Part shown: one piece after another, positions 16,301-64,000 of the stretch
Position numbering within the stretch: the first letter of the stretch is position 1
How the letters are laid out: every line of letters starts with the position of its first letter
Assembly (NCBI GenBank): GCA_965649765.1
Contig: OZ287754.1
Location: 14,136,001-14,200,000, forward strand
Direction of reading: 5' to 3'
Source of the DNA: Bispira polyomma
Lineage: Eukaryota
DNA: 64,000 bases
Position numbers and translations under genes: made by a program
The notes under the pieces: model-generated
Database searches by the model: none
The model's input: the letters and a program-made list of their open reading frames with translations, nothing else
Told to the model about the DNA's origin: nothing

Positions 16301-19300
16301 GTAATATTGCAAAACATAATAAAGTTAACATATTCAATTGATTGGAAAATTAGTATGTATGTTGCAAGGTCAATATGTAATTCTTTATCTACGTTTGTAT
16401 CCACAATTTGTTTAGTGACATATATATCTATGTTAAAACATAGTAGAAGTATTTAATTCATAAAAAAATGCATACCTTTGTTATAGAAAGTTGTAATGCA
16501 GTGTCGGACTATAAAAATTTAAATCTTTTTTTCGAAAACCATGTCTGTAAAACATTGAAACAAATTCTAATAACTAGATTACCTTCAAGTCATTGAAGTA
16601 TACCTTCAATGAATGATAAACATTTTACAAAAAATGTGGTATTACTATAAGCTTCAGTTAGTATCGAAAATTAGGTATGGTACAAGCCACTGGCTAAATT
16701 ACAGATTAAGGTAATAAAAATTTTAATAAAAACATTTGCTTAATATTATAATTTTACACTCTGTTGGTTGCCTATATTTTAAAATACTCAAAATTTAAAC
16801 ATGTTTAAAGCTATATGACTCATAAATAATAGTGAAAAAGAGATAACCTATGATAAAGGTCACACTTTATAAAAATTAAAAATACAAACTTGTATAATAT
16901 GAAAACTGAACATCAACAAATACATATAGTGTCACATAATACTAGCTAGTTCACCAATACTAGGTACAGCCCATGTTACAGCTACGTTATTAAATCTGAG
17001 ATAATTCTGAAGAGAGTATCCTAAAATTTACAGTAGAAATGAACAGTGGAGAACGAGGTTCTATGCCATTATGTCCTGGTCACACCTACACGTTCTAGAG
17101 CTTCGTTTGTGTCACGTTGTGTGAATTTAGGAAACGGTTTGAAACGTAGTAGGAAGTAAGGATCCTTTCTGTGATCGTTTCTTTACGTTTTCCGACGGAT
17201 AAAATCGTTCCCAAAACGTCTCCGTTTTGTCTTTTTTGTGTAGTGCTTCAAACTGTTTGAAACGCTACAGCCTCAGCTCCGTTTCTCCCCGTTTCTCTGT
17301 TCGTCCCCGAACGTTTCCGAAGGTAGCATAGATGTATCAGTGAGTAGCTATATGTAGTGGTAGGTAGCGAGGAAGTTCCAGTAAGTAGTGAGATCGTCTC
17401 CAGTCGTTGTATTTGTTTTACTAAGCAGCAGAACGAAGCAGAACGCACCAATAAGTAGCAGTACAGTAGCTACACCTAGTAGTAGGTAGTGATATTCTAC
17501 CAGTAAAGGGCCCGTTCTTTGCCCCTGCTCCTTGTGTATAAGTACCAACATCATCACGAAACGTCATGAAACGTCACAAAAACGTCACAATCAACTACCC
17601 CTTTATCTAAGTGACGTCACTTTGACACAGAACTTCCACGTTTTCAGTGTATATCAATTGGGTACGTTGAGAGACGTTAACAGGTGTAGGTGTGACCAGG
17701 TCATTACCAACGTTTTGGCTATGGGCATTATTACCACCGATCTGCTCATTTTTTTTGTTAAATGAAGTAATGCTGTGTACATATATATTCTGAGAACGAC
17801 CCCAGTTTTATCTAAATATGAGTAAGGATTGTTTTGTTTGTTTCTTTAAGTGCAAAGATTATCCATGTGTTTTAATCACTATATGTTTTAGGATCCGAAT
17901 GTTGGACCGGAACAAATTGATGGGACAGAAGCCTATCTTGATGAGCTGAAACTGGTTGGACATGTTGGGAAAACGGTATTTCATTGTCTTCACAAGTTGT
18001 ATGTTGTCCTGGTGTAATGGGCTTGATGAAGTATATGAACTCACTTTTCAATTATTAATTTTTTTCCTCCATTTTAGCAATATTTTTTTCCTAAGGATCA
18101 GATATATTAAAAACGCTTGTGTTACTTTAGTAGCAAAACAACCATGGAACAAAGCTGACAACATATCTTTGTCTATTTTTTAAAACAGTAATCACCAAAT
18201 AGTGCTTCAATTTTCTAAAAAAGTTTGCTTGATTTATATGTATATATATAGATATATACAGTTACTGTATATTTTCTAGTTTGGTCTATAGTTTGAGCAT
18301 TTAACATGTTTTCTCTTCTAGTTAGCCTAGTTGACCTGGCACAGTCATAAAAGTAAAAAATTGGACATGGCGGTATCACAGTCTCGTGCCACCCCTTAAA
18401 CACCTTTACATATTATTATGTTCAATGGTATTACCAAGTATACCAATCTGTAGGATTCTAGTCTAGTAGCTCAGGTTATATTTACTAGTTGTGTGGATAT
18501 GTCTTTCTATTATACAATAACTATAGCTGTATGATTGTGTTATAACAGGTTGCATTATTGTACCATTTATAGTTGCAGTTTCAAGTGCCTTCACAATTAC
18601 AATTATTAGGCAACTAAAAATCTAAAAACATTGCTTTAATTCTATCTTGACAACATTCTTGGGATTAAATCTTGTCAAACTTATTTTGTTGAAAGAAACA
18701 GTAATTACCATCAACACAATATAAAATACAGGACACTGCATTGTAAAAGCCTATTTTTACTGATGCCATACTTAAATTGATGTTTAAATTCATTGAAACC
18801 ATTTTCCTAATTTGATTGATTGTTATACCTTCTTATTTATGCCTTTTTGCGATAGATTCAGTATGAGACATGTTAAGGTGTTAAGCATGTAGTTACTGTT
18901 AACATGATGGTGCTTCTTTGAAGGTTTCGTGTGGTGCTAGGAGTTATTGGCCAGACCATCCAAATACACCAAGTGACACACTAATTAGTGACAATGGATA
19001 CTGGGTTGGGATTAAGGTACATTATGGACACGTTCTATTTCTTTTATCCATTGCCATCAATAATAAATCCGTATATAATGTAAGTGGTAGAGAAAACTAA
19101 AAGGGCATATAGTAGAGCGTACACCTTTAGTCAAAGAATACTGTGCTAAAGTGCTTCTGACAATCGAAGTTACATGAAAAAGAAAGGCATTTTGGAATAA
19201 AGTATACTTAAATTGATATAATTTGGAGAGGGTTGAAAGCTGTTCATCAAATTCAATATTTGATTGTACTGTACTTATGGCAAACGTAACCAACCAACAA

Positions 19301-22300
19301 ACACGAGTAAAAACATAAGCTCCTCTACGAAGATAATTGGCTAGTGTGGCTACTGAAAGTGTTTCTACATAATTTACTTGAAATACCATGACATTTTTAT
19401 GATATAAATTTAGTTAACATTTTGGTAGAAATTACATAGAGGAAAATCTCTTTCGAACAATTACCAAATAAACATGGTATGCTATTGCAGGTTCCAGCGG
19501 AAGTAAATCTTACTGAAAGTAAAGCCGATACCACAATAGAATTAGAATCCACAGTTCCTATAACTTGTGGTTGCTGCAGAAAGACTGATACTCAAGATGG
19601 GTTTAAAGATCAGACTGAATGTCAGTAAGTTATTTAATGAGTATTTCACTCAGCATAAAAATCATAAGACCCTTTGTTATTTGGGAATAAATAATAATAA
19701 TCAAAATTTGAGCATAAAATCTCTTTTCTAAATTTAGAGGGCAATATTAATCCGTCATTTGAGGGATGTTTGATTGCATTATCTTTCTGTATTTTTAAAC
19801 AAAAGTATTGATTAAAAAACTGGTTCAAAACAATAATGGCTATAAATTCTGTTTTGTTTTCAGATTATTTATAACGGTAAACAAAAAAATATTTAGGCAG
19901 TTCATGTTATAACTTAAATCATAGCAATAAATAAACAACGTCTGGTGTGTGATCGTCCTGAGATCAAACAAATACAGCCCATTGGTGGCACATACTAGGA
20001 ACAAGATGTTCGGTTTGTTCCTACTAGGGCAACTAGGATTACCCGTGATCGGCACGCAGTGTCATATTTTGTCAGCATCGGTTACATCGGTGATATTTGA
20101 GTACTTGAAACCTATTAAATTATCGCTTATAATCCTTAGTCACTTCATCAAAACAATAGTTTGTTATAATGTTTGCAGCTATGTATGTTTTTCACCTAAT
20201 TCCTAATATTTCCTAAGATGGTTGTTTTTTTTGTTCACTGGATTTTGTTTACATCAGCCGCCATATTGCCTGACCGGTTTCTGAGATTTGTTCATACTAA
20301 CTTTGCGGGCACCCTAATTTAAGAAGATTGTATCTTCGTGATTGCCTGGCCTGCATTTTTGCATTTGTGTGACATAATACATAAAAATTATGCTAGAGAC
20401 AAATTATGCTAGATAAATATAGCTTTCATGGTAACAATTTAAAGACAACGTAATATCAAAACTTACAAGAATCTCAGCTTTCATATTTGGCATAGATATG
20501 GGATCCATTTTTATGAGTGGGTTGTAGTAATAGTATTCTATGGCCAATCAGAGAATTTAAACCCAAAAAAATGAAGTGTGACGTCAGTTTTGGGTGAAGG
20601 TAGTTTCGTTATATAGCTGTAAAATAGCGTGCGCAGTAGGTGTGTAGGAATTCTGGGTACAAAAAACGAAAGATCAAATTGTATAAAAACAATTAATATG
20701 GAAGTCTTAAAAATCGAAAATCAAAATCAATTTTTATAATATATTACCATATTGTGTAGTTTGTTTTAATTTCTTTTTCACAGATTTTGAAGTATATATG
20801 TTACAGTAAAAATGTGAAATCATAAAAAACGCACATTTACTGAAAATTTCAGTAAATTCGCGTACTTAGTGGTTTTGGGCCTGCATTATTCCACAAGTTT
20901 ACTGGTGGTCATTTTAGTAAACATGTGGAATGTGTTCATTTTACCACCTTAAGGCAAAAAAGGTTATTCTAATACAGCCTCTGATGAGAATACCCATAGG
21001 AGTTCGAAATATATTAACCAATATTAATATATAAGGCAGTCAGATTACTCCTGTCACCTGCACCAAGTTCAAACAAACTTTTATATTATTCACTTGGGTA
21101 TATAACCATGAGTGCAAGTGACACAGCTCCATCCCAGCACTTAAAGCAGATAGGCAAGAAAAACAATTTTAGCATATTTTAACATAGACAATAAATGATG
21201 GTGAATACAATACAACACACATTCCCACTCCCTCTAGTATGTGTAGAACTAGAGCTTTTTATCTCAAATCTGACAAGTGATCCATCTCTCCCGCTCAAAC
21301 AGGCAATGTTTTGATATGACATCAGTATAGCCACCAGTACACTGTACATGCACTGATATATAGTGTAGTTTAATTCCTTCCCTTCTCTCTCTTTTATTTA
21401 TCTCTCTCTATATATGGATACATATGCTGTTATATACCAAAACAGTTTACTGCTAGTTTTCTGTAAAGTTTCTTGTATAAATATTAATATTTTAGTGGAT
21501 TATCACTCTACATTGAGCTATATATTCATACACACATCTCCTGTATCTACATATTGCATGTACTAGACATACAGAATGTATACTGGGTTGTTACTTGTTC
21601 CACCCTATTGGAGTTAATATAATGTATATACAAATTAAAATTGTATACTGCTTTGTCCATGACTGTAAAAATGATTCTAGATCTCAAAAATCTGTGTTCA
21701 TGGCCCACTCAGTGACAAAGACTGGATAGTGAATGGCTGTAGGGCTCATAAAGGATTACAAATGTTTCTCAATAACAAAGTTTTTTTGAAAGATATTGGA
21801 CAACTGTCATTGGGTCAATCTTTGTATCAAAGTTTACCACAGGATTTCTGATTAAGATGAAATAATTGTTTATGCATATAACTGTAAAGATGACTGTAAT
21901 GGCCTTAAATTTAGTTTTTGATAACAATTGACATAGTGAAATAATTACAAATATGAAAACGTATCTGGCACAGTTTAAACAAAAAGCTGTGAGTTAAAAA
22001 ATACTGAATTGTTACATTTTTAATACTATAATAATTGAAGCTATTTGAGGTATTTAAATATTAAAATCACATAAATAGCAACTATTTTATTGTTTTTGAA
22101 AATGTTGTTTGTTAAAAAATCATGATAGTGAATAATGCATAAAAGTTATCATTGAGAAGCTGATTACCTTGTATATAGTCACAAATATTTTGGTACATTA
22201 TTACCATTTTTATATATTCATACAATGTAAAAACATTTATTATTACCAGTGTCTGAAATACTGCATTAGACATAACCCAAACTATTCTAAGAATAAAAGC

Positions 22301-25300
22301 TTTGTGATAATATGGCTGTTTATTACTATAACTTAAGTGTGTACCAGGGTCGGGGCCGATGTAATAGAAGTAATAGAAAAGTAATAGATTTGTTGAAATA
22401 ATAGTTATAGATTTCAAAATTTGAAATGTAATAATAATAGTAATTGATTGCAAAGTAATAGATTTATCTATTACTTTTCTTTTACTTTCTATAATTTTCA
22501 TTATCGAACATATTCTATTAGGCACTCACATTAGTTACACTGCATAACAAATTAAATATTGCAAGATTTCCACTCGCAACACAGAGGTTATTTAAATGAA
22601 CCATTTTCAGTAACCTCATTGACAAGGGACATTTGATATATATTGATTCCCCTTTTTAAAATTATTTCATGTTAAAAACCCATATACATGTACATCTATT
22701 CAGATTTTTTACACTTAAAACATTTTGAATTTTAGAAAACACTTTTTCAAGAAATAAAACCTTATATGAACAAAATGATAATGTATAATTACAAATGATA
22801 CATAAAATCAGACTTTTTTGTCAAATCTCAGATCTGTCAAATCTCAGATTATTAAATCTCAGACTGTTTTGTTTCTAATTTATTAAGCTTTTAACTAATT
22901 TTAGTGTGATAAGTATAGGATTTATTTAGTTATTATGGCAAGTATAGGATTTATTTAGCAATTAAATGTTTTATTGTTCTTTTAAATATATGTTGTTTTT
23001 ATCTTACAGTGTATCATTGTAGAAGTAATAGAAAGTATTAGTAATAGATTCAAAATTTATAATGTAGTAGTAATAGATGGCATGTAATAGATGACATGTA
23101 ATAGACCCCCAACCCTGGTGTGTACCTGAGCAATAATTCTGAAAATATATCCTTATGACTTCCACACAAATCAGCTGGAATCTGATCATTTTCACTGCTT
23201 TCTGAAGTTGTTTTACTACAAGAGTCCTGATGTAATGGATTTGATTTGGGGGGGTTCAAAACAGTAAGATTTTAAAACTCCCTGAAATCTTTTTTCACTA
23301 AATTCCTCATCAGAACAAAAAATGGTATCCATACTTATAAATGGTGAACTGCAATTCAGTTTTCAAGTATTCTATATTTCTTTGTACATCTATAGGAAAG
23401 TAAGCCAGTTGCACTTTTATTCTTAGTGTTATGACAGAATTGATAGAAAGCCACTTTATAATATTAGTATACAATAGTATACAAGTACAAAATATATTGA
23501 GAATTACCTCCACAATTACATAAACTTTTACAGCATGCCTGAGTACTGCATACACAGAATCTCTATATAAAATCCCCCTCACTATAATGATGTCACACAG
23601 CTGAGAGAGCTTTCCAGGAGAAAAACAAACACATTTCTCTACAGTGGAGATAAAAAGCCAAATATCTGCTGTGGTGTGTGTGTGTTTTTACAAGAAAGAG
23701 TTGAGAAGTGTGTATAAGTACACAAACCAGTTTGAATATTATAGGATTCATGCATTTGGTGAAAATAATTGCCCATCTGCTTTAACCACCTATAAGTGGA
23801 ATAAAGTTCAACATTCAATACTCCAGAGTCAGGTACACGTATACCTGGCAACAGATTGAGTCATCATACTCTGAGCCTACTGGTAGAAGCCGCAAAAAAA
23901 ACTTGTGGCCCCCCCCCAAACCCATCAAAAGTCCACCCCAGTTTTCAGGCACTTTAGTCAGACAACACTCTGCCAAAAATATGGAGTTCAGTATTGTTTA
24001 TTGGTTAGGCTTGGATAATGAGGCAAATAATACAGAGAGATGCAGATGTCAAGAACTGTACTATATTTGGTCCTTACCAACCCTCTACCCCAACTGGGAT
24101 TAATGTATTTGTGTGATGAGGCCCTCTTACCTGGCACCCTTACCCTAGTGCCCCTTTACCCTTCATATGATATACATGTAGTATTATTTGGTGGTTTGTG
24201 TTTAAAGTTATTAAAGTATCTGGATTTAGTTAGGTCACTTTAAAGCATGCCACATCACATGTATTTTGTATATAGATTATTGTTCATTTACACAAGTGTG
24301 GTTAAAATATTGGTTGACACATATTACATACAAATTGAACACTCTTAATTGTTTTACATTTAAAATTGAATAATTATAAAACTGTGAAAATTAAATATAA
24401 TTTTAAATTACTGTTTTATTAAATAAAGAATAAAGGTTATAAGGTACAAGTTTGTAAAACTTTCTTTTGATATTAATGTAACCAGTTAACTGTGGCTTCT
24501 ATAGCATCCAAATATCGTCAAAGACTCAATTACATGTCTGTACAGGCCACACTAGCTTTGAAGGTAATATGGTAATTAAATGAAAAGAACCCTATACAAA
24601 CCCTTCTTTTGATGTAGCTAAAACTGTAAAATGTGGTTTCTGTGTAAGGTAAATATCCTGGAAGACTCACAATTGCCTATATTGATGCTGGTCATCCAAT
24701 TATATGTGATACTTGTGGCTTCTTAACTTTAAATACAATTACAGGTAAGTTGAGATGTGGCTTCTCAGATTGAGAAATCCATTGGGCCAGATTAAGAAGG
24801 TTCAAAATAATCACCCATTGAATTTAAAGTTGGCCATTAATTGTAATTATCACATACTCTTGTATATAAATAAAGACTGCTTGCCTGCTATCAATTCATT
24901 TAAGACTTGTACATGTACAAAATGGCTGATTTAGTTGAACATAGATTCATACAAGATTTATACACTAAATTTCAGCAAACTAAAAAAAATTATTCCAAAA
25001 GATGAATATTTTCAAATGATTGAAAAGATAAAAAATGCTGAACAAAATAAGAGCAGACATACATACTATTACCAACTACTTATACATCAAATAGTGTGGA
25101 AAAGGAAAAATAAAAAGTTTGACAAACATTGCTTATACCTTATATGAAGTTCGCCAATCAATATACAGTAAAATATGTGAAACCATGACCTTCTTTGTTG
25201 TTAGGATTAAATAATATGACATTTGCAAAGGTATAGTTTTTATTTTTATACTGGTAGTATCACAGATTTGAGGAATTTGTATTTATCGCCAAATAAAGAT

Positions 25301-28300
25301 TTACACTAGCGAATTAAAATCAGTTTGGTGATAGATATATTAAGTTAATGAGGGCAAAAACAGCACTTTCTGCTTTTTGTATTATTTTTATTCTTATCGC
25401 CCACTGAAGACGGACCATATACCGACTGTGTCCTTGTCAGTAATGGTGGACTCGCAAATTTCAGAATATTGTAGGCGCATCCGCAATCTTCACAAATGTT
25501 GCGGCCCAGGACCACCAGATTCTCATTTTGTTGAGACTAGTTGTCTGGATAGCTGGGCATGGGCAACCAAAGTTTGTCCTAGCTAGTTCCTGGAAACTGT
25601 AAGACCAAGGAAACTTGCATTTGTTACAATTGTTACTTCCTGTATGCAGTCATGCCAGATTGTGGTCTGATTTAAGCCAAACACTGTGAGGTTTCGGCAT
25701 CTTTGATGCTATTGTTTATACTACAGTTGCTTTATTATTAGGTTCGAAATCAAGATGAATTCAGCTCCGAAGATTAGCAATGTGCCAAGTAATTGCATTG
25801 CAATTTTTAACCCGTCTAAGACAAGAGCAACCTTCACCTTAAGTCCAGTGCGGGAATACACACAACGGAGAGACCTTACACAAGTGTTTTATCAAAATGT
25901 TAAATATAGTGCTGATGCAACAGCAATTTGGAAAGACTACAATATTGGCCCTTCCAAGGTAATCAAAGCTAGTTATATATAACCCCAACACCAACTTCAT
26001 TAGTTATTTATGTTGTCAAACGGCCTCACTCTTAGGGTTGATGGAATAAGTAATGAATGGTAATAGTAATGATCACACTTACTAAACATACTTTTATTAA
26101 ACATATTAAACATAATATTTTTTACTATGACTAAATTGTATTTCTGGTCATTTTCAGGAAAACTATTACAAAGTTTGGGCATGTAACGAAAAACATGGCT
26201 GCCGTTCATGTCCATGTGAACAGAGTTCTGCTTATTTAGGAAAAAGTAGTTCACATATCTTTACCAAATTTAATACACAAGTTTATTATTGGGTGTAGTC
26301 TGTGTGGGATTGAGTCTGGCTCATTAAAAAAAAAATGCTGTCATCAATGTAAAAATGGTTTCTGCTCAAGTGTAGCCCTAGATTATGTGAACAATTTTCC
26401 CATAGAAACATGTCCAATGTGTTTATGACATGGGATGTCTTTACTTTCTCATTAAATTAAACATACATAGGGAGCCCTTTTTAGGACATACAAATATTTT
26501 TCACGCCCGTTATTGTGTGTTAACAAGATGATCTTGTGCTCACAATTTAATTATCTCATTGTAACAATATCATGTTGTTTTAACGAGATAATTAAATTGT
26601 GAGCACACGATTTTCTTGTTAAATCAAAATCTATCTCATAACAATGAGAAAATTAAGTTGTGGGAAAGGTATAATTAAATTGTGGACAATTCATCAAAAG
26701 ATAGAGATTTTAATACCATTTTGTATATCTAAACTGTGCATTATTTACAAAATAATATTACTGATTCTATGTGTTTTAGGTACATATTACCAATGACCAG
26801 AGAATGGGGCTATGTGAGTCAGTCACAGATCCCCACATCAAATCATTTGACAGAATGTCGAATAAGTTACCTTACTATCATCTGTATCAACCAGGAAAAT
26901 ATATACTTGTAAAAAGTACATCACCAAGAGTGCTAGAGGTATGTCAAACTCAAAAACTTATATATTTTTTATTGTCATCTAGTTACTTTAATAGTACTTA
27001 CTTGCATTTGGAGAAAATAAGGTCTGGATTGTTCATGCAATTATCAATGATAGACGTATAATTATCATGACAGCCTGGTAAAAAGAAAGGTAAACAAAGA
27101 AAGTATAGTTACGAACTCAGAATATCAAAAACTTTTACTGTTTAACTGCTACAGTAGCAGTACATCATGTGTGTGACGTCATGGCCATTGTTAGAGCTTT
27201 TGTATGTTTGATTGTTTAATCTTGTTATCGTAAAGAGATAGTCACTGACGGATACAAACTGTTTACAAATATAAATTATAATCTTTTTGCAATATTATTA
27301 TATCTAAAACTCGATTTTATAATGGTACTGTTTGCCTAGCAATTGTGGACAACCCTGTTTTAATACAAGACAAATATATTAATTCTGTGACAATATTTGC
27401 TTGTTTATCAATCGCAGATCAAAGTAGATGACTGTTGAGATGATTTACACAATGTAACATACACACTGATTGCACATGAATGCTACCCAGGCAGTACATG
27501 TTCAGAATTATTTAAGGTGATAAATCCGTACCTTTTGCTTGCAATGCCTGGTTTGGATTGATACAAAGATAATGATTACATATTATAAGTGCATACTGAA
27601 TGTAAATGACACTTGTGGCATGTATAATTAAGTTAAAGAAGACAACAAGCTCACCATCAACTCATTTTGATTGGCTTTATCTTCTTGCCGTATTTAATTT
27701 AATCATATAAACCACTAAGAGTACAGTTTTTTTAAATATTCAATTTTGTAGATACATTCTCTGTTACGGACATGTGAACTGAAAACTACAGTGGCGTGCA
27801 ACTGTGGAGTGGCAATCCGAGAAGGCAACCTGATGTATGGAGTTGATAACTGTAAAGGTCAATTCAGGACCTTCAAGAAAACTCTTGTGGATGGCACATT
27901 AAACAAGGGAACTTTAACTACAAATGCAGCTGGTACAACATTTACGGTATTGTTTATTATTGTGTATTTTAGTGTTGTTCAAGTAACCATAATATTAAAA
28001 TTGTCTGTTTGAAAACGTAGTGTTACGGTCATGGGAGCAAGCGCGGTAGCAATTACCAGTTGCTTTTAGGTTGTAACAAGAAAAGACAAAAAGTTTCACT
28101 TAACAAATTTATTTAACAAATAAAATAACAATTACAGAATTACAGTCAACTGAGATACTCTTAATAGTTCATACAATAATACAATAATGAAACCAATCTG
28201 ACCTGACCACAGTCCTGTCCACATAAGTAACAATTAAACAAGTTTGTCCACTGTATCCAGCAATCTGTCTTGAGATCCGCTCGGTGTCCACACAATGCAT

Positions 28301-46300: not shown

Positions 46301-49300
46301 CTACCCTTTTAATGCTGTCTAAGAGTATATAAATACAGGAGATAAAATGCACAATAGTTAACACAAGGTGCTTGTATTGTGTCATTTCACGTCATTTTTT
46401 ATCCTAACGATGCAGGTATATGCTCGAACTTGTGTGCTGTCATGTATGTGGGAAAATTGGAGTTGACTTGACAAATGTCGGTGGTTTTGAAGAGCAGAAA
46501 ACCTTGATAAACTACTTTTTGTTCAGATTTTCTCCACTGGTGAACTGCCATTCGTGATTTGACCCAAATGTGTAAAATGTACTGAAAGTGATGTTAAACC
46601 TGAACCAAACTGATACTCTTTCAGTATATAATTTTGTAAATATCGAGCAGTCTGGTCGTTTAACTATTATTTCTTGCCAAAACATATTAATTCCTATGAA
46701 AATATGATTGTGTTTGTCTTTCAGCTGATGTCCCTGTGACCACAGGCATTACCTGTGCTAATTACTATGATGAAGGATGCTGTGATTGGAGTGCTCCAGT
46801 AACTGTTAAATACTGCAGAGATGCTGTAGACCAACCCTTCTATGCCTATCAGCTGATGCCACCCCCTGTCTGTGAGACAGCCTTCTGCAGTGGCAACATA
46901 ATGCCTTGTGGTGATAGAGAAGAATGGGATGAAGACAGTGAAGCATGTATTGGTGTGTTCTTATTGACAATATAACATCTATTATACAAATATTTATCAA
47001 CACATTTTTACACTCCCAAATTTGCTTTCATAACATATTTGTGTAACAGTGGTTCTACTGTATTTAAGTCTTTTATTCGTACACTAGGGCAATAATAATA
47101 TAAACAAAACTAAAACAAATAAAGATTGCAAAAAACCGATGGAGACATTGGAAAGAAGTGCATGATATGTGTATGAAGGAGTCAGGTATTAGAGTGTATT
47201 TTGAATAGTTTGAGTACATTGTTATGTATAGGGGTCAAGAAATGCATAATATAAATGAATAATGAAGGTCTAACAGCTAGTAATCATGTTCATTTTCAAA
47301 TTTGAATTTAGTTGGGTTTTACATCGCTTTCAACAGCTTAGGTCATATGATGACAGAATATTTTCATTAAACTAATCTCTTTTGACAAAAATTCTTTGAC
47401 ACAAAAAGCAGTGATTTTGGAATATAAGCTACATCAATTTCAAAAGAATTGTAATTGTAGATAAGTGGCACATTGATTTTGTACTACACAGGTTCACATT
47501 GGCCTACCCTTGGCCTCAGCCATCTCAAAATTTGCGTTGACTTTGTACCAGTTTAATTGGGGAGCCGCAGCCAAGGTTAACTCGAAGAAAGCGCTACTTG
47601 TGTATCTGTTTAACTTAGATTGTTGTCACTTTTCAGATGCCTTTCCTGTGATGTCTGGCCCACCACATTTATCGGATCCTATTGCTCCAGAGGACCTATT
47701 TCAAGAAACATTTCAATTTAAATGTACAATCAATTATTCAGATGATGATGCTAGAGCCATGTTTGAAGTGCGCTGGTATTTTGATAATGAAGAGGTACAA
47801 GTGCTGATAGTTTTAAGTTATACCATCCACATTACATATTAAACAGGCGGTATTATTTTATTTTAATACTGGATTACCTTCAAGTCTTCTAAGTATACCT
47901 TTGAACAAATGATGATTATTTTGTAAACATGTAGTATTACTATAAGCGTCAGTTAGTGACCAAGCATGGTACAGGTCACAGGCTTAATTCAAGATTATGG
48001 TAATTTTGATAAGAAATTTCCTGAAGCCTAGCACAAGATAGTATAGTTTTACAATGTTTCAGTGGCCAATATGGTAAAATAATAAGTTTAGATCATGTGT
48101 TTAAAGCTGTAGGACTCACAGATGAAAGTCAAAATGAGATAAACATAATAAAAAGCCACACAAACATTAAAAGGTAAAAATGGAAACTTGTATAATACAA
48201 AGACAAGGTATAATAAACAAAGATAGAGTAACTGAAAGCTGGTTCACAAATACTAGGTTCACTTAATCAGTACTGTGTACCTAAAATGAGTAGTTTGCAC
48301 TCTTTTTTTTGTCTTGCCCTTTTTGGCAGCCATCTTTGATTTGTTGGTCCTTTTTCGGAAATTCCAAAAATGAGTGATTTTGAGCTTTTTTTCGACCAGC
48401 AGCGCAAATTTTGTGGCGCATATGGCAACTTTTTAGAAATTTTCCAATTTTGACAGCCATCCTGAACTTCTGTGTCTTTTTTGAAAATATCCATATTCTC
48501 CAAAAGTGTACCAGATAGAGTGGTTTTAAGTGAATGACAAATATTACTTTTCAGGTATTATCAACTTAAACTTTATTTTAACCATGTACACTGAAACAAC
48601 TTTATTATTGCTTCAACTTTTGTTTCAAAAACCGTTTTCTAGTTGATTGTTAATGTTTTAGGATCCTAATGTTGGACCAGAACAAATTGACAGAACAGAA
48701 GCCTACCTTGATGAGCTGAAACTGGTTGGACATGTTGGGAAAACGGTATTTTGTTGTCTTCATAATTTGCATCTTGTCCCAGTGTAATTAGCCTGATAAA
48801 GTCAATATACTTACCTTTGAATTCTTAATTTTTTATGATTAACATCCATTTTAGCAATGGTTTTTAAGAATATACTACTCCATAAACTCTAAAAAAAAAC
48901 TTATTTTGGCAGCAATAAAACCATAGGACAATGCTCAGAACATCTCTTTTCTATTACATCAAAAAAACTATGTTCTAACCTGTTTGAGTGAACTTATATA
49001 TTATACAAATATTCATATTTATTGTTTAAATCCATCAAAACATTTTATGCCTTATGCCAACAGATTCAGTTTGAGTCATGTTATGGTACGAGGCTACTGG
49101 GATTAAACCAATTCATTAGCAAGTGTGCTGTTCACACAATTTAGGTCTGTGTTAAGTGTTATTTAATCACTTCACATTCTCAAATTTTATTCTTACTGTT
49201 TTACATTTAAAAAAAATGTATTTCATGAATCTTGAAACAACCATTCAACTTTCAATTTTAAACAAACACATCCCTACTTACTTCTAAAGTGATGGTTCTT

Positions 49301-52300
49301 TTTTTAAGGTTTCTTGTAGTGCTATGAGCTACTGGCCAGACCATCAAAATACATCTAGTGACACACTAATGAGTGACAATGGATACTGGGTTGGGATTAA
49401 GGTAAGTTATGAGCCTGTTCTATTACTTTCATTTAATTACTATAAATAATATATTCATGTATAATGCTAGTCATATAGAGTAAACTAAAAGGGCAGAATT
49501 TGCTTCGAAAAATAAAATTGACTTGTTACAACCTACCAAATGTCATTTTAATTGGTGTCGACAACTTTATGTAATACAGTAGAACCTCCATGATCCGAAC
49601 ATATTGCCTAGGCAAGATTATGTGCACAGAATAAAAGGTACCTGAAATAGAAGAGGCATTTTAGTATAAATAAAATATACTATAAATTTGGCAGAGTTGA
49701 AACCTGTTCATAAAATTAAATATTTTAATATACTGTACTAGTAGCAAACCAACCAACCAACCAATGTACACAGGTAAAAACCTAACCTCCTTGATGGAGT
49801 AAAAAAGGTAGTATGGCTACAGAAAATATTGTATAATTTAGTGGAAATATAGACAAATATTCCCGTATATTCGTTGCATCCAGCAGATTCTGGTTAGTGA
49901 GCTTTTGTCCACAAATAGGCCTCCCCATCCCCCTATTGCCCCTACTGTCACAAAGTTGTATATTTAAAATTCTAATAGGAACCTGTGACTGACCAATACA
50001 AAGTCATACAAAATTGAGGTGTACTTCCACTAAAACCCACTAACACTAATCCACACCAATGAGAAACAAAGACATCACAAACACTAATGAAAACCCACTA
50101 ATAGCAACAGTAATGCACACTAATCCTAACAAGTCGCGACTAACTGCCACGTTTGCGATACCACCTAACAAATGCTTACTGATACCATTGAATGGTTACT
50201 TACTAACTGCTGCTAACTGACATTAATGCAAAACAAGTCTACACCACCTGCTTCTGATAAGAAACATTAAAAACTAATCAAGATGTGTGCCCATCCCCCT
50301 GCCCCCTCTAGCAAACCCTAACATACTAGCTTTCTGACATGAATTTTTTCAACATCCTAAAATATACAAAATGTGTGGCAGCTCAACAAATCACTCCCAG
50401 TGTAGACAAATCTGAAACTAAAATGAAATGTATGTTCCCTGATACAAAAACGTTTGTAGTGTCTTCGTTTCATTTGTTAGTCTGTAACTAGGTATAAAAT
50501 TCTTTAGTGTAAAAGTGAAAGTGTAAATATTGTATGTGGAAATTCAACGGGGGAAACTCTCTTTGGAACAAGTACCAAATAAATATGGTTTCTATTGCAG
50601 GTTCCAGCGGAAGTAAACCTTACTGAAAGTGAAGCTGATACCACAATAAAATTAGAATCCACAGTTCCTATAACTTGTGGTTGCTGCAGAAAGACTGATA
50701 CTCAAGATGGGTTTAAAGATCAGACTGAATGTCAGTAAGTTAATCAAGATTTGGTTAGTTTTTGGAAATTGCGACACCTAGGAAGTTTGTATTTGGTGCA
50801 ATTGTTCCATACTGGGTGTAGTCATGCAACATTGTGCTTGATTTAACGCAAAAGCTGTGATGTTTCAGCATCTCTGATGCTATTGTTCACACCACAGTTG
50901 CTTTTTTTTAGGTTTGAAATTAGGATGAACTCACTGCCAACGTTTAGAAATACACCAAGTGATTGCATTGCAGTATTTAGCCCGTCTAAGACCAGAGCGA
51001 CCTTTACCATCAGTCCAGTACGGAAATACATAAAACGGAAAGACCTCACGCAAGTGTTTTATGAAGATGTCACATATAATAAAAGTGATATTGTAACAGC
51101 TATCTGGAAAGACTATAATATTGGCTCCTCCAAGGTAATCAAGGCTAGTTGTGTATAAAAACAACCCATTTCTTATTTATGTTCTTAAAAATGCCTCAGT
51201 ATAAGTATAGTTGAAATAAGTCACTCATGAATAGTAATGATAACACTTACTGGTTGTACCTTTATTTTACTCTACTATATATAGCCTTTTAACAGAAAAG
51301 GATGACAGATAATGTCAGCAAATGTCATACATAGGTTTATTATGGGTATAGTTTGCTTGAACTATATACATAGTCATTTAAAAAGTATTACAGATATTGT
51401 CAGCAAATGTCATACATAGGTTTTTATGGGTATAGTTTGCTTGTACTATATATAGTCATTTAAAAAATTTTTTTACAGATATTGTCAGCAAATGTCATAC
51501 ATAGGTTTATCATGGGCATAGTTTGCTTGTACTATATATATTCATTTAAAAGAAAATTATTACAGATATTGTCAGCCAATTTAATATATAGGTTTATCTT
51601 TAACAAATTGGCAGCTTGTTGCCATCAACCTGTCAACAGTTTCTGTTCATTTAAATGAAAATATTCATCAAATTTAAAACATAGGTTTATTATGGGTATA
51701 GCTTCTGTACGATTAAGTTTGGGCCTATTCTTAAAAAAATGCTGCTTTTTCTGTCAACGTAAAGATGGTTTACAGTCATTTAAAGATAAAGTATTATATC
51801 TTTAGATATATTCACTAAATTTAATGCACAAGTTTATCATGGGATACCTTGTGTGGGATTGAGAAACAAAATAGTCGCCATTGCCATTAACATAAAAACG
51901 GTTTCTGCTAATTTTAGCTAAAATTATTTCAAATATTTAGCAAAGGAGGGAGGGGGGTTTAGATTCACACATATTTTCATACAGAAACAGCTTCTGTAGA
52001 AATATGTCCCATTTCTAATGGCCTATGGCGAGTTGGTACAATTTCCAGTGTTAATACATTAGTGAATTCCCTGCGAAGTGTGACATGTTCTTATAAGATG
52101 GGATGCACTTGCTCATTACCTAAAGAAACATAAGGGCCCCTTTTAGGACATAATAATTTCTTTCACACGCTTTATTTTATTGTTATTAACTTGTGCAAAC
52201 AAAATAATTAAATTGTTGGCAATTTAATAAAAAAGATAATAGGTGTCAATCAAGTATATCCTTAAAGGAGCTCCACACACATTATTTACAAAAGCATTTT

Positions 52301-55300
52301 AATAATTCCATGTGTTTCTAGGTACTTATTACTAATGACCAGAGAATGGGGCACTGTAAGTCAGTCACAGATCCACACATTAAATCATTTGACAGAATGT
52401 CGAATAATCTACCTTACTATCATCTGTTTCAACCAGGAAAATATAAACTTGTCATTAGTACGTCACCAAGAGTGCTAGAGGTATGTTAAAATGCATATTG
52501 ATATACATATGTTCTGCCTATCCCAGTTCATTGATTTTACATTAAATTTCTTATAGTATTGCTTTATTGAAAGTTTAAATTATGGATGTATAAATAATAA
52601 TTATGAACTTTTGTTTGTTTGGATGGTATTAATATTATTATAGTAAACAGATAGAGTTACAAACTGATACGCACTTTTGACAACTATAGAACAAAATAAC
52701 TTGGCAATGTTAATATACAGAAAACTCAATTTTAGAATGGTACTAGTTGCGTAGCAACTATGGTGACTTATGGATGCCCTTACTTTTCAAACACAAATTT
52801 AATAGTTCCACGACAATATTGCAATTATCGAGTTTATTAATGGCAGATAAAGTAGTTCACTATTTAAATAAAATACACAATGTGACATAAGCAATTTCAT
52901 CTTTAATAATGAAGAAATTACCATTATTATTGAGGGGGACCATAATTAAGCATCCCGTAAGGGCGTTTGTTTGTATATAGGAGGTAAATTTACGCATTTT
53001 CGGTCATACGACTTATTTGATTGGTCGAAATGTAATGACACTATATTGAAAATTTGCCCAAGGTCTACTGGATACATGTGCCAAATTTGAAAAGAATCCT
53101 TCCAGTGGTTGCTGAGTTACAGCCAATTCAAAATGTGTGACTAAAAAAATTTCCCTTGTTTTGTATACAGGAGATAGCTCCCGCATTTTCTATTGGCTAT
53201 AGCTCAGCAACCACTGGGCCGATTCTCTTCAAATTTGGCACATGTATGCAGTAGCCCTGGAAAAAAAATTTAAATATAGTGTCATTACATTTCGACCAAT
53301 CAGAGAAGTCACATGACCCAAAACACGTTTTTTAAAGGGGTATGCTTGTCCGGATGATAACTTCAGAAGCGCCTTACCTATTCTCACGAAATTTGACAAG
53401 TAGGTGTCTTATATAGATGTCCGGAACTAGATAACTCTGATAAGTGATCCGATACAAAATAGCCGACTTATTAACGATTAATTAAACGTTACGATTTTTC
53501 GAAACAAAGAAAATGAAAAATCCTTAATATCTCAGAAATGGTGCGAGATAGAGCGATTTCGGCTGAATTTTGGGCCTAGAGGGTATACTCAGTATTCTCA
53601 AAACTCAGCAACTTGGCAAAAAATTCAAAAATTAAATTTTTTTAAAAAAGTCAAAATTTAAAAAATTTTAAAAAAGTCCTCAATCTCAACAGAGGAAATG
53701 AAAAATCCTTAATACCTCAGAAACGGTGAGAGATAGACTGATTTGGGCTGAATTTTGGGCCCACAGGGTATAAAAATTTTTTAAAAACATTAAAATTTTC
53801 AAAATTTTGCAAAAGTCCTCAATCTCAACAAAGGAAATAAAAAATCCTTATTATCTCAGAAACGGTGAGAGATAGAGTGATTTCGGCTGAATTTTGGGCC
53901 CACAGGGTATAAAAAATTTTTAAAAATGTTAAAATATTTAAAATTTTGCAAAAGTCTTCAATCTCAACAAAGGAAATGAAAAATTCTTAATATCTCAGAA
54001 ACGGTGAGTGATTTCGGCTGAATTTTGGGCCCACAGGGTATAAAATTTTTTTAAAAATGTTAAAATATTTAAAATTTTGCAAAAGTCTTCAATCTCAACA
54101 AAGGAAATGAAAAATCCTTAATATCTCGGAAACGGGGAGAGATAGAGTGATTTCGGCTGAATTTTAGGCCTAAAGGGTATAAAAAAATTTTAAAAATGTT
54201 AAAATATTCAAAATTTTGCAAAAGTCTTCAATCTCAGCAAAGGAAATGAAAAGTCCTTAATATCTCAGAAACGGTGAGAAATTTTGACATTTTCAAAATG
54301 TTTTTTTAAAAACTTGAAATTTTTTTTTTTTAATTTTTTAAAAAATCGCTCTCTCTCCATTTTTGGCCGCCAACTTGAATTTCTGCGTTTATCTCGGAAA
54401 CGGTGCCAGATAGAGCAATTTCGGCAGAATTTTGGGCTCGGAGGGTATATGCAGAAAATTGCTCAATGTCTTATTCGGACGCTTTGTTTTTGCTCTGCAA
54501 AAACAATTTCCTTTCATTTGCAAAGCAGTACTCTAGTTTTGTTTGGTCCATAATTGTTAGCCACATAGTATAAGTTTAGAATTATCTAAGGTGACAAATC
54601 AGAACATTTTGCTTACATTGCCGTGAGTTTTCAATATTTTATTGCTTTATTTGGTTGATTGTTTAATATTTAGATATTTTTAAACATAATAGTTACATAC
54701 TATAAGTGTATTCTGAACATAGAACGACTCCAGTAGCATGTATGATTTATTTATAACTCAAGAAGACAAAAATAGTTGGCTCATGTTGTAAGGTTTTGTA
54801 TTTTTTCTTGATATAATTTAATCCTACAGTGCACTCTTGTGGTTTATACTGCTATATATATATATATACATATATAAAATGTCACAATCTTTTGAGGATC
54901 ATGTTTATTTTTACATGCAATTTTGTAGATCCATTCTGTTTTACGGCCATGTGAACTGAATCCTAATGTGGCATGTAACTGTGGAGTGGCAATCCGAGAA
55001 GGCAACCTACTCCTTGGAGTTGATAACTGTAATGGTCCATTCAGGACCTTCAAGAAAACTCTTGTGAACGAAATATTGACTGATGGAACCTTAGCTACAA
55101 ACACAGCTGGCACAGCATTTACAGTATGGTTTATTGTTTTGTATTTCAGTATTTTTCAAGTAACCATAATATGATAATTGTCTTTTTAAAAATACAAATC
55201 CACACAGTATTTATTTTTATTAGTCAGTTAGGCGTTACCAGCAGATAATCATGCTGATTCAGTGTCTGCAACATTGTGTATACACCAGATCCCTTAGCAA

Positions 55301-58300
55301 AATTATTTCATCCTATCCTTCCATGGAGTATCACTTTTATGCTGTAATCAAAAGACACCTGCTACTGCTTTGGAAGTCCTTCAAAAATTCTTAGCAGATG
55401 TTTAGAATTAGATGGCACTAAATATGCTCAAGCTGAATCTGGATAAGACTGAATTGATATTGTTTGACTCTGGAACTCAACGTGATGAACTATCAACTGG
55501 TTTTCCAGTAAAAATTCTTGGGACACTGTTTATGTCTTTATCTCCTGATAAAGTGAAAAACTTGAGAGTTTTGTTTGATATTGATTTTTGCTTCTCTAGT
55601 CATATCCAATCAGTATGTAAGTCATGCTTCTTGAGACGTCACGAGAATTAGGAGGCACCAATCAATATCAGTTGCAATAATTGAAGCAAATGCTCTGGTA
55701 AGCAGCATAATGTATTACTGCAATTCACATTTTTTTTTTGACAAAACTGACCTAAATCAGTTGCAATGCATCCAGAATTCATGTCAGTTGTTCTGCTCTG
55801 CTTTTCACATACTTCACCCACAGGTATTGGTGTGCCATATGATTGTAACAATAGTGCCTCACCCGTAAAATCTTGCTTGCTTGATCCGTGGCCCACATTC
55901 CTTGTCAAAGAATGTATTGACATTTTATTGCCCTCAATCACAAAACTTATCAACCTCTCGTTGATAAATGGCATCTTTCCAGATGATTTTAAAAAGGCTA
56001 TTGTCACTCCTTTAATGAAAAAACCTTCTCTTCCAAAGGCTGACTTGAAAAATTACAGTCCTGTCTCAGGCCTTTGCTATATCTCTAAGTTGGTAGAACG
56101 TGCGGTTGCCTTACAGATCAAACAACATGTTGACGTCAGCAATCTGTCCAATAAGTATCAGTCAGCGTACAAAAGTGGTCATTCTACTGAGACTGCACTT
56201 CTCTACATCAAAAATGATGTTCATACATCTTTATCCGAAGGTATGCCTACTGCCTTAGTACTGCTGGATCTGTCAGCAGCCTTTGATACTATTGATCACA
56301 AAGTTCTTCTTGAGTGCCTATCGTCTTGGTTCGGTATCAGCGGTATGGCGCTTAAGTGGTTCACGGCATATTTGTCTGATAGATTCCAATCAGTCAAAAT
56401 TGGCAATATCTTATTCGACTCAACATGGTTAAAATTTGGTGTTCCCCAAGGTTCCGTCCTGGGTCCCATTTTGTTTTCCATGTACACCACTCCACTCAGC
56501 AAGATTATTGCTGCATACAAAAACATAAACTTTCACTTCTATGCTGATGATACCCAACTGTACATCCACCTTACACCTGACTCTGCCCAGGCAGCTTTCA
56601 CTTCCTTACAGAACTGCCTTGTTGATGTACAACACTAGATGGCAGCAAATAAACTCAAGCTGAACCCTGAGAAGACTGAGTTTATTTTGTTTGGCTCCAA
56701 GTCGCAACGGGAAAAATTGTCCAGCTGTTTTCCACTTGACATTCTTGGCAGCAGGTTTTTTCCAGCTGACAAAGTACGAAACCTGGGTGTGGTGTTCGAC
56801 TCTGAATTCTCCTTCTCTAACCATGTCGCATCGGTGTGTAGATCATGTTTTGTTGGCCTCCGTGATTTCAGGCGGATTCGACGCTATCTTTCCAAATCCA
56901 CTGCAATCACTGTTGCCAATGCTTTGGTCAGCAGCAAGCTTGATTACTGCAACTCTCTGTTCCGTTCCTTATCTCGTAGTGATCTCAGACGCCTTCAGAA
57001 TATCCAACACTCATTGGCACCTATTGTGACCAAAACTTCTAAATTTTCCCACATTACTCCTGTACTCAAGTCACTGCACTGGCTCCCAATAAAATATCGT
57101 GTTGCTTTCAAAACAGCAAAAATAATATATAAATTTCTAAATTCTGGATTACCCACTTATTTTAGCCCCCATCTATCCAAAAAAAACATGCTCAGTCAGG
57201 ACAAGGCACAGTAACCCTGATATATTATACCATAACATTCCCACTTTCGACCCTCGCATCCACAAATCCAAAGTTCAGTTCAATCACTGCCTAGCTCATG
57301 ATGGCCCTCTCATTTGGAACAGCCTACCTGGTCATGTTCGCCTGGCTCAAACTTTCTCCTCTTTCAGGAGTAAGCTGAAGGCCTATCTTTTTGAACATGC
57401 TTTTCCACCTTAGCCGTCGCAACCATTTACGGTAGTCTCCCTGGTTACGACTTCCATCCGCCCACTATTTTTGATTTTCGATTAACGTTTTGGGTTTGTT
57501 GCACCTTAGAATTTGTTGTACAAAGATTAAGCGCTATAAAAGTACGACTAGATTAGATTAGATTAGATTGTTCATTCGAGTTTGCCTAAATACTACAGAT
57601 CAACACTTATGCGACTACAAATGTAGTGTTAATACCAGACAGGCTACTCCCAAAAATAAATTCTTTTTGGTTCCGAAATATAAGTCCAAAGTGCACAGGT
57701 CAATTAAAGGTTCACTTTGATGAAAGTTTGGCAAATGATGTATCTACTCTATGGAATAGTTTACCTCAACACAATAGAACTGCTCCATCCCTGTATTCCT
57801 TCAGGAGTAGTTCAAAGACATATCTGTTCAATTATGCATTCCATCAACAGTCTCTTTCTTGTTCCCAGTGGACATATTGATGACAACTTTTTTTGTTAAT
57901 CATTAATGACTATTGGCTCTGGTTTTTGCACCTTAAAAAGGTACTATAATAATATTATTTCAACTAACTGGGTTTAACCAAACTTTGAAGGATAAAGTAT
58001 AGCTTTGACCAGAGTTGCCAAGCTCTACAAAATACCTTATAGCTTTTCATCATCCGCCCAGGTTTAATGGCACTTGGGCTGATAATAATTTATGTTGGGC
58101 TTTTGAAAATCGATATTGCTCCACAAAACCATGGTATTAATAAGTTGGGCATTACTAGTAGATCATCATGCGAGGTCCATAGTTTTGTGTTTTAGTTTAA
58201 AAAATATGGTTTAAAATTACATAGGATTTTAACCATACTATTATAGTTATTATGATATTAATTATAGTGTATTATGTTACTAATTTTTTGGTTTGATGAT

Positions 58301-61300
58301 TTAAGTTGAAGGTTGACCAGAGTAGACCAAGTTTTCTGTCCTCGACAGTGCTTTGATTAACTGACGGTACTCATGGAGAGGACTGAGTCGTTACTATAAC
58401 AAATACTTGTAAATCTGACACAGTTGTTTGTTATGTTCTCTTTAACGGGAAATATACAGCAATATTTTCAAATAATGAGATTTAATTAATCAAGTACTTT
58501 TAGGTTGTCCATAAGTTATAATATTTTGTTAAATAAAAACATAAGCCTTATCCAGATGGTATAGTCAGTCTTATAGCTTGGCAGAGAATCCACCAATTAA
58601 ATTTGTTAAAATGCGAATATGTAAAAAACATAGAATCTGATATGAACTAGCAGTTAAGCCCCATATAAATCCATCCATATCACCGAAACTAAAATGAATG
58701 TTGAAAATAGTTATTTCTACTTTTACAACATTAGGGTTCAGTGTTATCCTTAAGGTATAGCATGATGTAAATAAAATCCAACATGTGGTCAGGTCAATAT
58801 CACCTAACTGATGTCGAACAATATTGACCATACCTCTGGGGTTATATTTCCTCATATGGCCTGTTTGAACAATTTATATTCTGTAAAAATACCAATATTA
58901 TTTTTCTTGATATCATGAAGTACTCTTGTTATGAATACACAGGACTTTACCGGCAGTTAAACTCCTGTTTGGGTGATACCTATTGTTAAAATCAGGTGCT
59001 TCTTTTTAAAGAATGTACTGTCTGCTTTCTGGGCCACATTATTGAATGACCTTGTTTAATAAATTACTCAGTTCAAGTTTACATCTGTACATCATATTCA
59101 GTAACTTTTAAATATATAATACATTTATTCATCAAAATTATGATATAAAATTATATTAACAGAAAATTGCATCGCCTTACCTTTATTTATAATTATAATG
59201 GGTGTATGTGTATTTAGAAATTCGAAATGACTAAAAAATACAGTTTGTTACCGTCGCGTTAGTTTTCAGCAGTTTAAGTCAGAGAATTGCCTCGAATCAG
59301 GTGTTTCTTTAAATTAATAGTCCTCGCCTTCGGCTCAGACCATTATCTTAAAGAAACACCTGATTCTTGGCTATTCTCCTACACATAATACTTCTTCACC
59401 AGTTTTGCATATCGATTTACCCACCTTGTTGAAATACTGATGTTAATTTTTTATGATAAGATTGTTTATTTGGTTTTATATTTGTCATATTTTATAATTA
59501 ATTTTAGAATATCTATACAATTTTTAACTTAACTACTTATTTTAGAGTATTATTTTACTAATTTCAGTACTTTTGAAGTTTGTACTGAAGTTTTGCTTTA
59601 ATCAGAGTGGGTAAAATAACTCTCTAACTGCACAACAACCCTTGGTCTGATTCATGTCAAGCTTTGGTAAAACTATAATGCCATTTATAATTGTCATTTT
59701 TAGATTGTAATGCCAAGTGGTGCCAAAGTTGTAGCCACAGAGGATAAACATTGGCACCTTAATGTTGATGTTTTTCTGCCAAGTGAATTCTACAATACTA
59801 CTTCTGGACTGTGTGGCATTTGGGATGGGGATGCCAGCAATGACTTTCAGCTACAATTTAGTAATGAAATAGTTTCCAGTTCCGAAAGTCTGCCCAAAGT
59901 GTTTACAGATTCTTTTAGGTAGCGACTAGTAGGGTTTCTTTTATCAAAGATTCGTATGCAGCAAGAGTGTTTGATAATGTTCTTCCCTGTTTTGTGGCCT
60001 TAGGATAGCATTATATATTTCAAAAATGTTAACCAATTAGTTCCTAATTAAGACTTGACAAACAATTTGCCACATTTTTTGCAATACATTCTAAAAAGTT
60101 TGTAAGGGCCTGATGTAGGAATATGCATATATATATATAGATATGTGTGCTACATTGTCATTAAGAAAGTACGTAGAGTAGCCAAAATAGAATAAATTAA
60201 AAGCAGTTCACGGACTGTAAAGTCAAGTATATTTAACTTACTAAGCAAAGTTCATTGCACTATAGAGAAGTAAATGCTATTTTGTAAAGCACAGTGGGTT
60301 GTTTCTACTTGATCTTTCATTATACTCGGATACATTTTTGGTTTATCATTGTGTTTCGATTCAATTGTTTACCTTACGTACCTTTTAGTATGGCCCTTGC
60401 AAGTAATAGTTTTTGACAGTACTCGCTGGATGTCAGAACAGTAGGAAGAAAGTAAGATGTCAGATGGTAAACAAATATCTGAAAAATCAAAGAAAGCTTT
60501 GAATTAATTTTATTCAACCCTTAAATTACCCTTAAATGATAAAACATCTTGTTGTTTTGAAAATGTAATGATCGTGACCCCTTTATTTTTGCTTCAATAC
60601 ACCATTTATTTGTTGAATGTAATAACGCTACTCAAAACCTTAACTATCTATTTTTGGGGCCCAATTTCATGAGAAACAGTAAAGCTAGGTCATCCATTCC
60701 AAGTTGTACTTTTTGTAGTTTTGCACTAATGTTCAATAATCTGAACTTTAATAATACCAGGATTAGCTCTGCCCATGCTTCCTGATATGAATATTTATTT
60801 TCATACTGTACTGCCCGTAGGTTTTTTTTTTTCATTTCTGTCTGTCCGTTTGTTATGTCACATATGAGATATATGACAGAATCAAAGGTCAGTTAATGCT
60901 TATTTTTGGTCTTGTATTATTATTATATACAAACTTTGTACTTGCATTGACAGTATTCAAATAGTGGATCATGTCAGCCTTATTACAACCAAAATGGCTG
61001 CCATAGTACTTTTCCTAATAAAGGGACAACAAGATTCAAACCCAATCTGGCAATCTTAAAAGTTATGCAGCCTAGCATTAGAAGTTTCTTTGTTTTACAA
61101 GATATGCATTACATAAGCTAAATATATATTACATGCTAATATGTTATAAATATGTGTTTACATCTCTGTTTGATCAAATATTTTAGCTTTTCTATTTTCT
61201 TTATATTTTAGTGTATGCATTATTTTGAAACATATATTCGGAAACCCACAATTTCCTATTATTTCTACTTTGATTGAAGTTTACTTAGTTAGGAAATAGA

Positions 61301-63864: not shown

Positions 63865-64000
63865 GTATCGGTCTATGGTCATATTATCAAACCGTTTGAT
63901 CTAAAACGGTACATCCTGGCATAGTCTGGCTGTATTTAAGTTTAATTAGTATTTGAATCCTGCAAATAAAGCCGTGTGTTATAGGTGTTGTAGTAGCATC

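Follow-up and report, generated by a model that had tools for sequence, protein, structure and literature searches.

A type I hammerhead motif in an intron of Bispira polyomma and its probable origin in a young, internally deleted family of Penelope-like elements

The hammerhead motif and the intron that holds it

The window, i.e., the whole stretch of DNA analyzed here, comprises 64,000 nt of contig OZ287754.1 (contig C7; positions 14,136,001 to 14,200,000) of the 1.04-Gb genome of Bispira polyomma. It carries a gene with VWD and EGF domains, and one intron of this gene contains a split copy of a Penelope-like element (PLE) with a hammerhead motif, together with two other repeats (Table 1). 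A second module of the gene occupies window positions 46700-64000 (exons 77-92% identical), and a further paralogue (L202; C7:14.33 Mb, minus strand) lies about 170 kb away. In other introns of the window, broken frames of LINE-type reverse transcriptase (RT) and a fragment resembling the integrase of an LTR element were recognized by eye.

Table 1. Features of the window, in window coordinates
Feature	Position	Strand	Remarks
Host intron of the VWD/EGF-domain gene, 6.1 kb	19625..25741	+	Donor GT at 19625; acceptor at ~25741, by eye
MITE-like repeat, left part	20793..20933	.	Target of the PLE; older, ~90% identity
PLE copy, 5' part	20934..21144	+	98-99.5% identical to family copies
Private G>T	20965	+	In 1/96 aligned copies; strengthens predicted decoy pairing with stem II
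Hammerhead stem I, 5' strand	20974-20980	+	Read from sequence
CUGAUGA core	20981-20987	+	Read from sequence
Stem II	20988-21005	+	One A.A mismatch, one U-G
GAAA core	21006-21009	+	Read from sequence
Stem III	21009-21032	+	AU-rich, 6-nt loop; read from sequence
AUA triplet	21031-21033	+	Predicted cut between 21033 and 21034
Stem I, 3' strand	21034-21040	+	Read from sequence
Site A	21083..21090	+	Preferred 3' end of the family, about 50-57 nt past the cut; internal here
Non-autonomous DNA transposon, 2.64 kb	21145..23781	.	13-bp terminal inverted repeats; splits the PLE copy
PLE copy, 3' part	23786..24163	+	Ends at site B
MITE-like repeat, right part	24164..25087	.	First five bases match the site-B end (microhomology)
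LINE-type RT frames and LTR integrase-like fragment	55412-57877, 37376-37981, 33429-34529	+, -, +	By eye

A preliminary description of this DNA had listed the parts of a type I hammerhead on the sense strand of the intron, and every one of them is present: CUGANGA, GAAA, and an NUH triplet follow in order with three helices at 20974-21040, and the whole motif equals the family consensus with no difference. The minimum free energy structure of the bare 67 nt is the three-way junction (-11.3 kcal/mol, z -2.07). A descriptor scan of both window strands returned this motif as its sole match; among 300 dinucleotide shuffles the strict descriptor was found 0 times and the loose one in 36. The Rfam search that had been proposed as a check went the other way, since the Rfam hammerhead models gave no match in the whole window at gathering thresholds and none in 19000-23000 at E<=10. 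A covariance model of our own, made from six other PLE families of the same genome with the window's family excluded, matched exactly 20974-21040 at 51.8 bits (E 2.9e-9, a rough value), with the runner-up at 18.2 bits. Among nine sequences, stem II showed 14 cells with both sides changed, a number that kinship inflates and that 0/500 shuffles equaled; double changes affected 3/5 pairs of stem II and 1/7 of stem III, and stem I is uninformative for covariation because it is invariant. An invariant CA precedes stem I and an invariant A lies in loop II, with no recognizable canonical contact between loop II and stem I. Stem III is a full 7-8-bp helix as opposed to the minimal one described as typical of metazoan PLEs (PMC4209133). 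Judged from its sequence, the type I hammerhead is real as a motif, and its cleavage is predicted.

The two parts of the PLE copy complement each other. The ribozyme, priming site A, and the start codon of ORF1 (21108) lie in the 5' part, while the 3' part holds the remainder of the ORF1 5' region, a deletion junction at about 23920-23930, and a remnant of the GIY-YIG C-terminus (stop 24114-24116). The copy is 5'-truncated 100 nt upstream of the cut, directly past what we take to be GC boxes of the family; the label "initiator" used below is likewise our presumption. The DNA transposon that separates the two parts is bounded by a TTAA duplication (21141-21144 / 23782-23785), is 98% identical over its full length to a copy on contig C1 (L214), and has presumably Kolobok-like ends. 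Its family is abundant, 2.6 kb long with 13-bp inverted ends, and has at least seven full-length copies at 87-98% identity. The PLE copy in turn interrupts an older repeat (20793-25087), presumably a MITE, of which 78 bp were deleted without target duplication. The order of layering was the MITE-like repeat first, then the PLE derivative, and last the TTAA transposon. Paralogue L202 is continuous over 20361/25528, with 20362-25527 absent, and the corresponding intron of the second module in the window is about 177 nt long and lacks a hammerhead, as had been described; the window copy is absent from both paralogous introns. It differs from the family consensus by 8 substitutions in 595 nt (1.3%; family median 1.5%), and on this measure it is a recent insertion that diverges like its sisters.

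A non-autonomous family and its three-ORF partner

The preliminary description had also asked for genome-wide copies and an association with PLEs, and both were found directly. The 29-nt ribozyme core has 98 exact copies in the genome (control, 0), and a genome search with 20934-21100 yielded 507 candidates, 40 of which were scored and were all 98-100% identical. The repeat unit measures 1,269 bp, is often arranged in tandem, and has one ribozyme and no stop-free frame longer than 75 aa. Compared with an autonomous three-ORF PLE of the same genome, it shows 84-88% identity in three homology blocks with a deletion junction, and joins the ribozyme and the ORF1 start to the end of the RT/GIY-YIG ORF. 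By this alignment, the 1,269-bp unit is an internal-deletion derivative of a Neptune-type PLE. Within the young family the 67-nt ribozyme has a divergence of 0.7% versus 1.6%; selection on the ribozyme was considered on that ground and rejected, since an exact match to the core was the criterion by which many loci had been chosen.

Several loci of the family deserve a separate record. At C7:61483654-61496404 (L067/L030/L068) a tandem array of about 12.7 kb mixes 1,269-bp and 922-bp units, possibly as a source locus or an incipient satellite. At C11:9.96-9.97 Mb (L061/L062) one A-primed copy has been tripled inside a segmental tandem repeat of ~5 kb, with identical flanks. L081, in which an arm of the window's family abuts a PLE ORF, was considered as a parent and rejected, as the ORF belongs to a different family. 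There (L081:2757-4600) the arm stands head-to-head with a 5'-truncated copy of the other family, and no target duplication was seen; the junction arose either by a template switch or in two events. By eye, two strong motifs like 5' splice sites are present on the minus strand of one copy (L017, about 940-980) and several CRE-like motifs in the 3' region of the unit, and these would allow for possible antisense transcription.

The autonomous partner is a unit of ~5.5 kb in the order ribozyme, ORF1, ORF2, ORF3, ribozyme. ORF1 has about 255 aa, ORF2 about 800 aa with RVT_1 and GIY-YIG domains, and ORF3 260-360 aa with two C2H2 zinc fingers. In ORF2 of L163, RVT_1 was found at E 4.7e-8 and GIY-YIG at E 1.8e-4, just under the cut-off; in L180 GIY-YIG is above the cut-off. 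The arrangement of RT followed by a C-terminal GIY-YIG endonuclease (EN) is that of the EN+ PLEs, and the KGLxF and DKG motifs, a Cx5CxxC linker, and a hammerhead in the terminal repeat agree with the descriptions of the Neptune clade (Arkhipova et al., 2013, PMC3846280; Craig et al., 2021, PMC8557442). The same descriptions cover the partial tandems, the head-to-head inverted and 5'-truncated arms, the target duplications, and the one-ended "tail," all of which the elements studied here display. The linker lies between RT and EN at residue 657 of L163 ORF2, and PMC8557442 defines Neptune/Nematis by a Cx2-5CxxC linker in this position. Going by the linker and the motifs, the autonomous partner would be of Neptune type.

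In the main descriptions of EN+ PLEs these are single-ORF elements (PMC8557442, PMC6431247, PMC6515669). In contrast, the elements of this genome have three ORFs separated by stops at the DNA level, with ORF1 as a separate frame before the RT ORF and the C2H2 ORF after it, although ORF1 may be joined to ORF2 by splicing. The ribozyme and the three ORFs occur in at least six diverged families of this genome, some of which do not have every ORF in one locus. Among public assemblies searched at near lengths, ORF1 has nine stand-alone homologues (200-283 aa) and ORF3 three full-length ones. ORF1 gave no Pfam match and no usable Atlas match; its predicted model is helical (pLDDT 71, pTM 0.48) and found no match in PDB at E<=0.001. 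It carries a conserved basic KKRR patch, possibly a nuclear localization signal, and a long helical core (L163:2577-3359). Past its two fingers ORF3 has one to three TQT/xQTD-like motifs (L168:6417-7190, L180:8778-9836, and sisters), which we take to resemble binding sites of the dynein light chain LC8 as in ASCIZ/ATMIN.

Paired 3' ends and 5' ends at the predicted cut

Copies have two fixed 3' ends, which also occur in sister families. Site A lies about 53 nt past the cut and site B about 50-60 nt past the ORF2 (RT) stop, each within a pyrimidine/AU-rich stretch. Folding either site as a single sequence gave nothing significant, and a conserved hairpin around site B was rejected as weak, with only a 4-bp closing stem in the consensus fold and one double change. 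Two-armed loci numbered 86, or 80 after removal of duplicates sharing their flanks. In these 80 unique insertions the ends were A+B in 67, A+B at a locus edge in 1, A+A in 0, and B+B in 1 (L197, unexplained), with one unclassed end in the other 11. Another B+B case, L171, which has the identical flank on both sides, fell outside the 80 but belongs in the count, and four loci picked as likely B+B all turned out to be A+B. Independent choice of sites would give at most half A+B, from which a binomial p of about 1e-19 was computed for loci that were chosen by motif or protein matches and are not a random sample. An adjacent duplication of >=8 bp accompanies 52/67 A+B insertions with a mode of 14-15 bp (shuffled flanks, 1.5). 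Rare variants are shared at about 2 per 1,000 sites between the arms, or the tandem passes, of a single locus versus 0.08 between loci, roughly 25-30x as often, and this points to one template.

These patterns are best explained if the PLE protein, a dimer by prediction elsewhere, nicks both target strands about 14 bp apart and reverse transcription of a single RNA is primed at A for one of these strands and at B for its partner. The window copy would then be a single arm that was primed at B, read 100 nt beyond the ribozyme, and joined to the target with the 78-bp deletion. In the Anolis Poseidon element PAc, RT initiation is likewise internal at two fixed sites, one of them downstream of the ribozyme, both strands of AT-rich targets are cut, and the ribozyme is often read through (Frangieh et al., 2024, PMC11167929). 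The two RT start sites of PAc are adjacent and the in vitro data given there show no pairing of strand and site, whereas A and B are paired in the genome almost without exception. Published PLEs have a tail of 30-40 nt, often at one end only (PMC8557442, PMC3846280), versus ends that are here about 0.8 kb (deleted unit) to about 2 kb (autonomous) apart. The pairing of distant A and B sites is the same rule as the published one-sided tail and the two adjacent RT start sites, with the sites set far apart.

The source of the template may be described differently. As a classical non-LTR retrozyme, the RNA would be cut at both ends and ligated into a 1,269-nt circle for rolling-circle reverse transcription; this is compatible with the reading as a PLE derivative, as the template alone differs. 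The 1,269-bp unit resembles animal non-LTR retrozymes in being a non-coding tandem unit with one type I hammerhead per unit, in its dispersed copies, and in its PLE origin (Cervera and de la Pena, 2020, PMC7229834; Li et al., 2026, bioRxiv 10.64898/2026.07.22.740005). Arms reaching two units and beyond (L073, 2,603 bp) and the rare variants in common between tandem passes would fit a circle, and circles have been demonstrated for coral retrozymes and are named for mussels in a section heading (PMC7229834). The unit is, however, longer than the 150-450 bp given for the short units of retrozymes and than any consensus in the survey of Li et al. (2026, bioRxiv 10.64898/2026.07.22.740005), where lengths range over 51-972 bp. 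Unlike retrozymes as described in these sources, it is a traceable internal deletion that extends beyond the terminal repeat and keeps remnants of ORF1 and the endonuclease together with both priming sites. Moreover, the same patterns are expected if uncut RNA of a tandem source locus is read through, arrays of this kind exist (the one on C7), and unprocessed RNA was the main substrate in vitro (Frangieh et al., PMC11167929). We regard the circular template as a tentative alternative, somewhat less probable than not.

The 5' ends were counted in the region from C1 to C4:30.9 Mb, at loci found mainly by the site-B motif and after eight duplicates sharing their flanks had been removed by hand. 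The bin 0..+19 past the predicted cut holds 15/124 arm 5' ends, the bin -20..-1 holds 1, and no other 20-nt bin shown (-300..+239) holds more than 5. When only the 82 ribozyme-reaching arms are considered, 15 (12 insertions) stop 0-19 nt past the cut, against a rough expectation of 2-3, and 67 read through. Exact starts at +1 were seen in four arms over all loci, and in sister families 5/23 post-cut leaders (4 insertions) start at the cut, which makes three families whose genomic 5' ends coincide with the predicted cut. The copy in L240 starts at the cut, ends at site B, and is flanked by a 14-bp duplication; in L230 both arms meet at the cut. For the youngest copies (>=96% identical to the young unit) 3/28 arms stop at the cut versus 12/54 of the others; these small numbers are in line with the lower predicted activity of the youngest copies given below.

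A transcription start site, with stem III as a TATA-like element, could also collect 5' ends here. The window's family does have GC boxes, an AT-rich stem III that resembles a TATA box, and at +7..+12 an initiator-like hexamer, several ends fall at +8..+19 where a start near +9 would explain them, and a rotifer PLE has been described with a comparable TATA/Inr arrangement (PMC3846280). But the pile-up begins sharply at +1, upstream of the putative initiator, which leaves the +1 ends unexplained, and such ends recur in two sister families without the initiator-like hexamer. A preceding G is present at one exact +1 junction only (L240), where it is part of the target duplication. A start site is thus quite an unlikely cause of the pile-up. 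We infer instead that it is a genomic footprint of in vivo cleavage, and the window's family appears to cleave in vivo. Since many sister insertions start at the predicted cut, the ribozyme likely trims the element's own RNA; since 67/82 arms read through it, cleavage is partial at best. The template RNA would sometimes be already cut by the ribozyme, so that the cDNA runs off at +1, and would more often be uncut or re-ligated and be read through. The passages on PAc in Frangieh et al. (2024, PMC11167929) report no RNA-seq reads starting at its cut, whereas the genomic 5' ends of the elements studied here pile up at theirs.

Predicted folding in the host intron and meaning of the element

In five flanked contexts at 37 C the predicted share of the active fold was 0.0000-0.0006 for the window copy, as compared with 0.002-0.02 for family copies, 0.38 for the bare core, 0.04-0.25 for the autonomous L163, and 0.001-0.014 for the autonomous L165, all being equilibrium estimates without tertiary contacts, proteins, or co-transcriptional kinetics. 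The window copy has the lowest share of the copies tested because of its private G>T. In the host pre-mRNA the ribozyme would thus mostly misfold, and slow cleavage by an intronic hammerhead would be tolerated by splicing. Consistent with this, hammerhead-cut introns were still spliced in the experiments of PMC2995048, in which a fast HDV ribozyme blocked splicing.

The preliminary interpretation had two parts. The PLE/retrozyme origin stood, with both the family and an autonomous partner found; the proposal that cleavage could alter how the host gene is spliced or expressed went unsupported, as the insertion is recent, absent from two paralogues, and split by a transposon, and its active fold is predicted to be rare. 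With the cut 4.7 kb before the 3' splice site and a family that apparently cleaves in vivo, a small host effect may nevertheless occur; that such an effect would be measurable is improbable. An unselected passenger could cut the pre-mRNA often enough to lower the mature mRNA of this module: it lies on the sense strand, its core is identical to that of a family apparently cleaving in vivo, the distance to the acceptor leaves time to fold, and splicing is reported to fall with faster intronic ribozymes (PMC2995048, PMC10274809). The very low predicted active fraction, the few stops at the cut among the youngest copies (3/28 arms), and the continued splicing of hammerhead-cut introns (PMC2995048) all speak against it, and we consider such a loss of mRNA unlikely.

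Intronic ribozymes can affect host mRNA, as reported for the conserved CPEB3 ribozyme (PMC10274809). Like CPEB3 and the ultraconserved amniote hammerheads (the latter known to us from a reference title), the present motif lies in a sense-strand intron and is self-cleaving, here by prediction. An intact core in this position and the CPEB3 precedent (PMC10274809) would be compatible with co-option as a regulator of the host gene. Those intronic ribozymes are old and conserved, however, whereas this one is a recent mobile-element insertion that diverges like its sisters, is missing from the paralogues, and was disrupted by a later transposon. Near the core, the only private change would by prediction lower activity, and nothing suggests selection for a host effect. 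Co-option is accordingly highly improbable.

Taken together, the hammerhead is very probably the ribozyme of a PLE family, retained in a young, internally deleted, non-coding copy in the intron, where its likely targets are the tandem transcripts of the element itself, and for the host it is likely a passenger with no function. Hammerheads in PLE repeats (PMC4209133), animal retrozymes (PMC7229834), and the PLE origin of retrozymes (bioRxiv 10.64898/2026.07.22.740005) have all been described before, which makes the motif as such ordinary; as one passenger among about 100 copies, it is without importance as an intronic regulator. Our literature search, which covered the main texts of freely accessible papers, returned no three-ORF EN+ PLE, no count of A+B pairing, and no 5'-end footprint, and the supplements of PMC8557442 or Repbase entries could already hold such elements. 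On balance we lean toward the view that the partner elements represent a new lineage of three-ORF Neptune-type PLEs with obligate priming at two sites kilobases apart on one RNA, whose insertions record hammerhead cleavage in vivo.

In this family the birth of a retrozyme-like element from a PLE through internal deletion can be followed at the nucleotide level, and the autonomous partner adds two accessory ORFs to a class described as single-ORF. The inverted arms and the "tail" of PLEs lack a mechanism, and sites as distant as A and B make a rule of one of each countable. Genomic 5' ends at the cut in three families can be set against the RNA-seq reads of Frangieh et al. (2024, PMC11167929), none of which is reported there to start at the cut. 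If true, the three-ORF, two-site reading would explain the one-sided PLE "tail," and the 5' ends would be the first direct sign that PLE hammerheads process the template of transposition.
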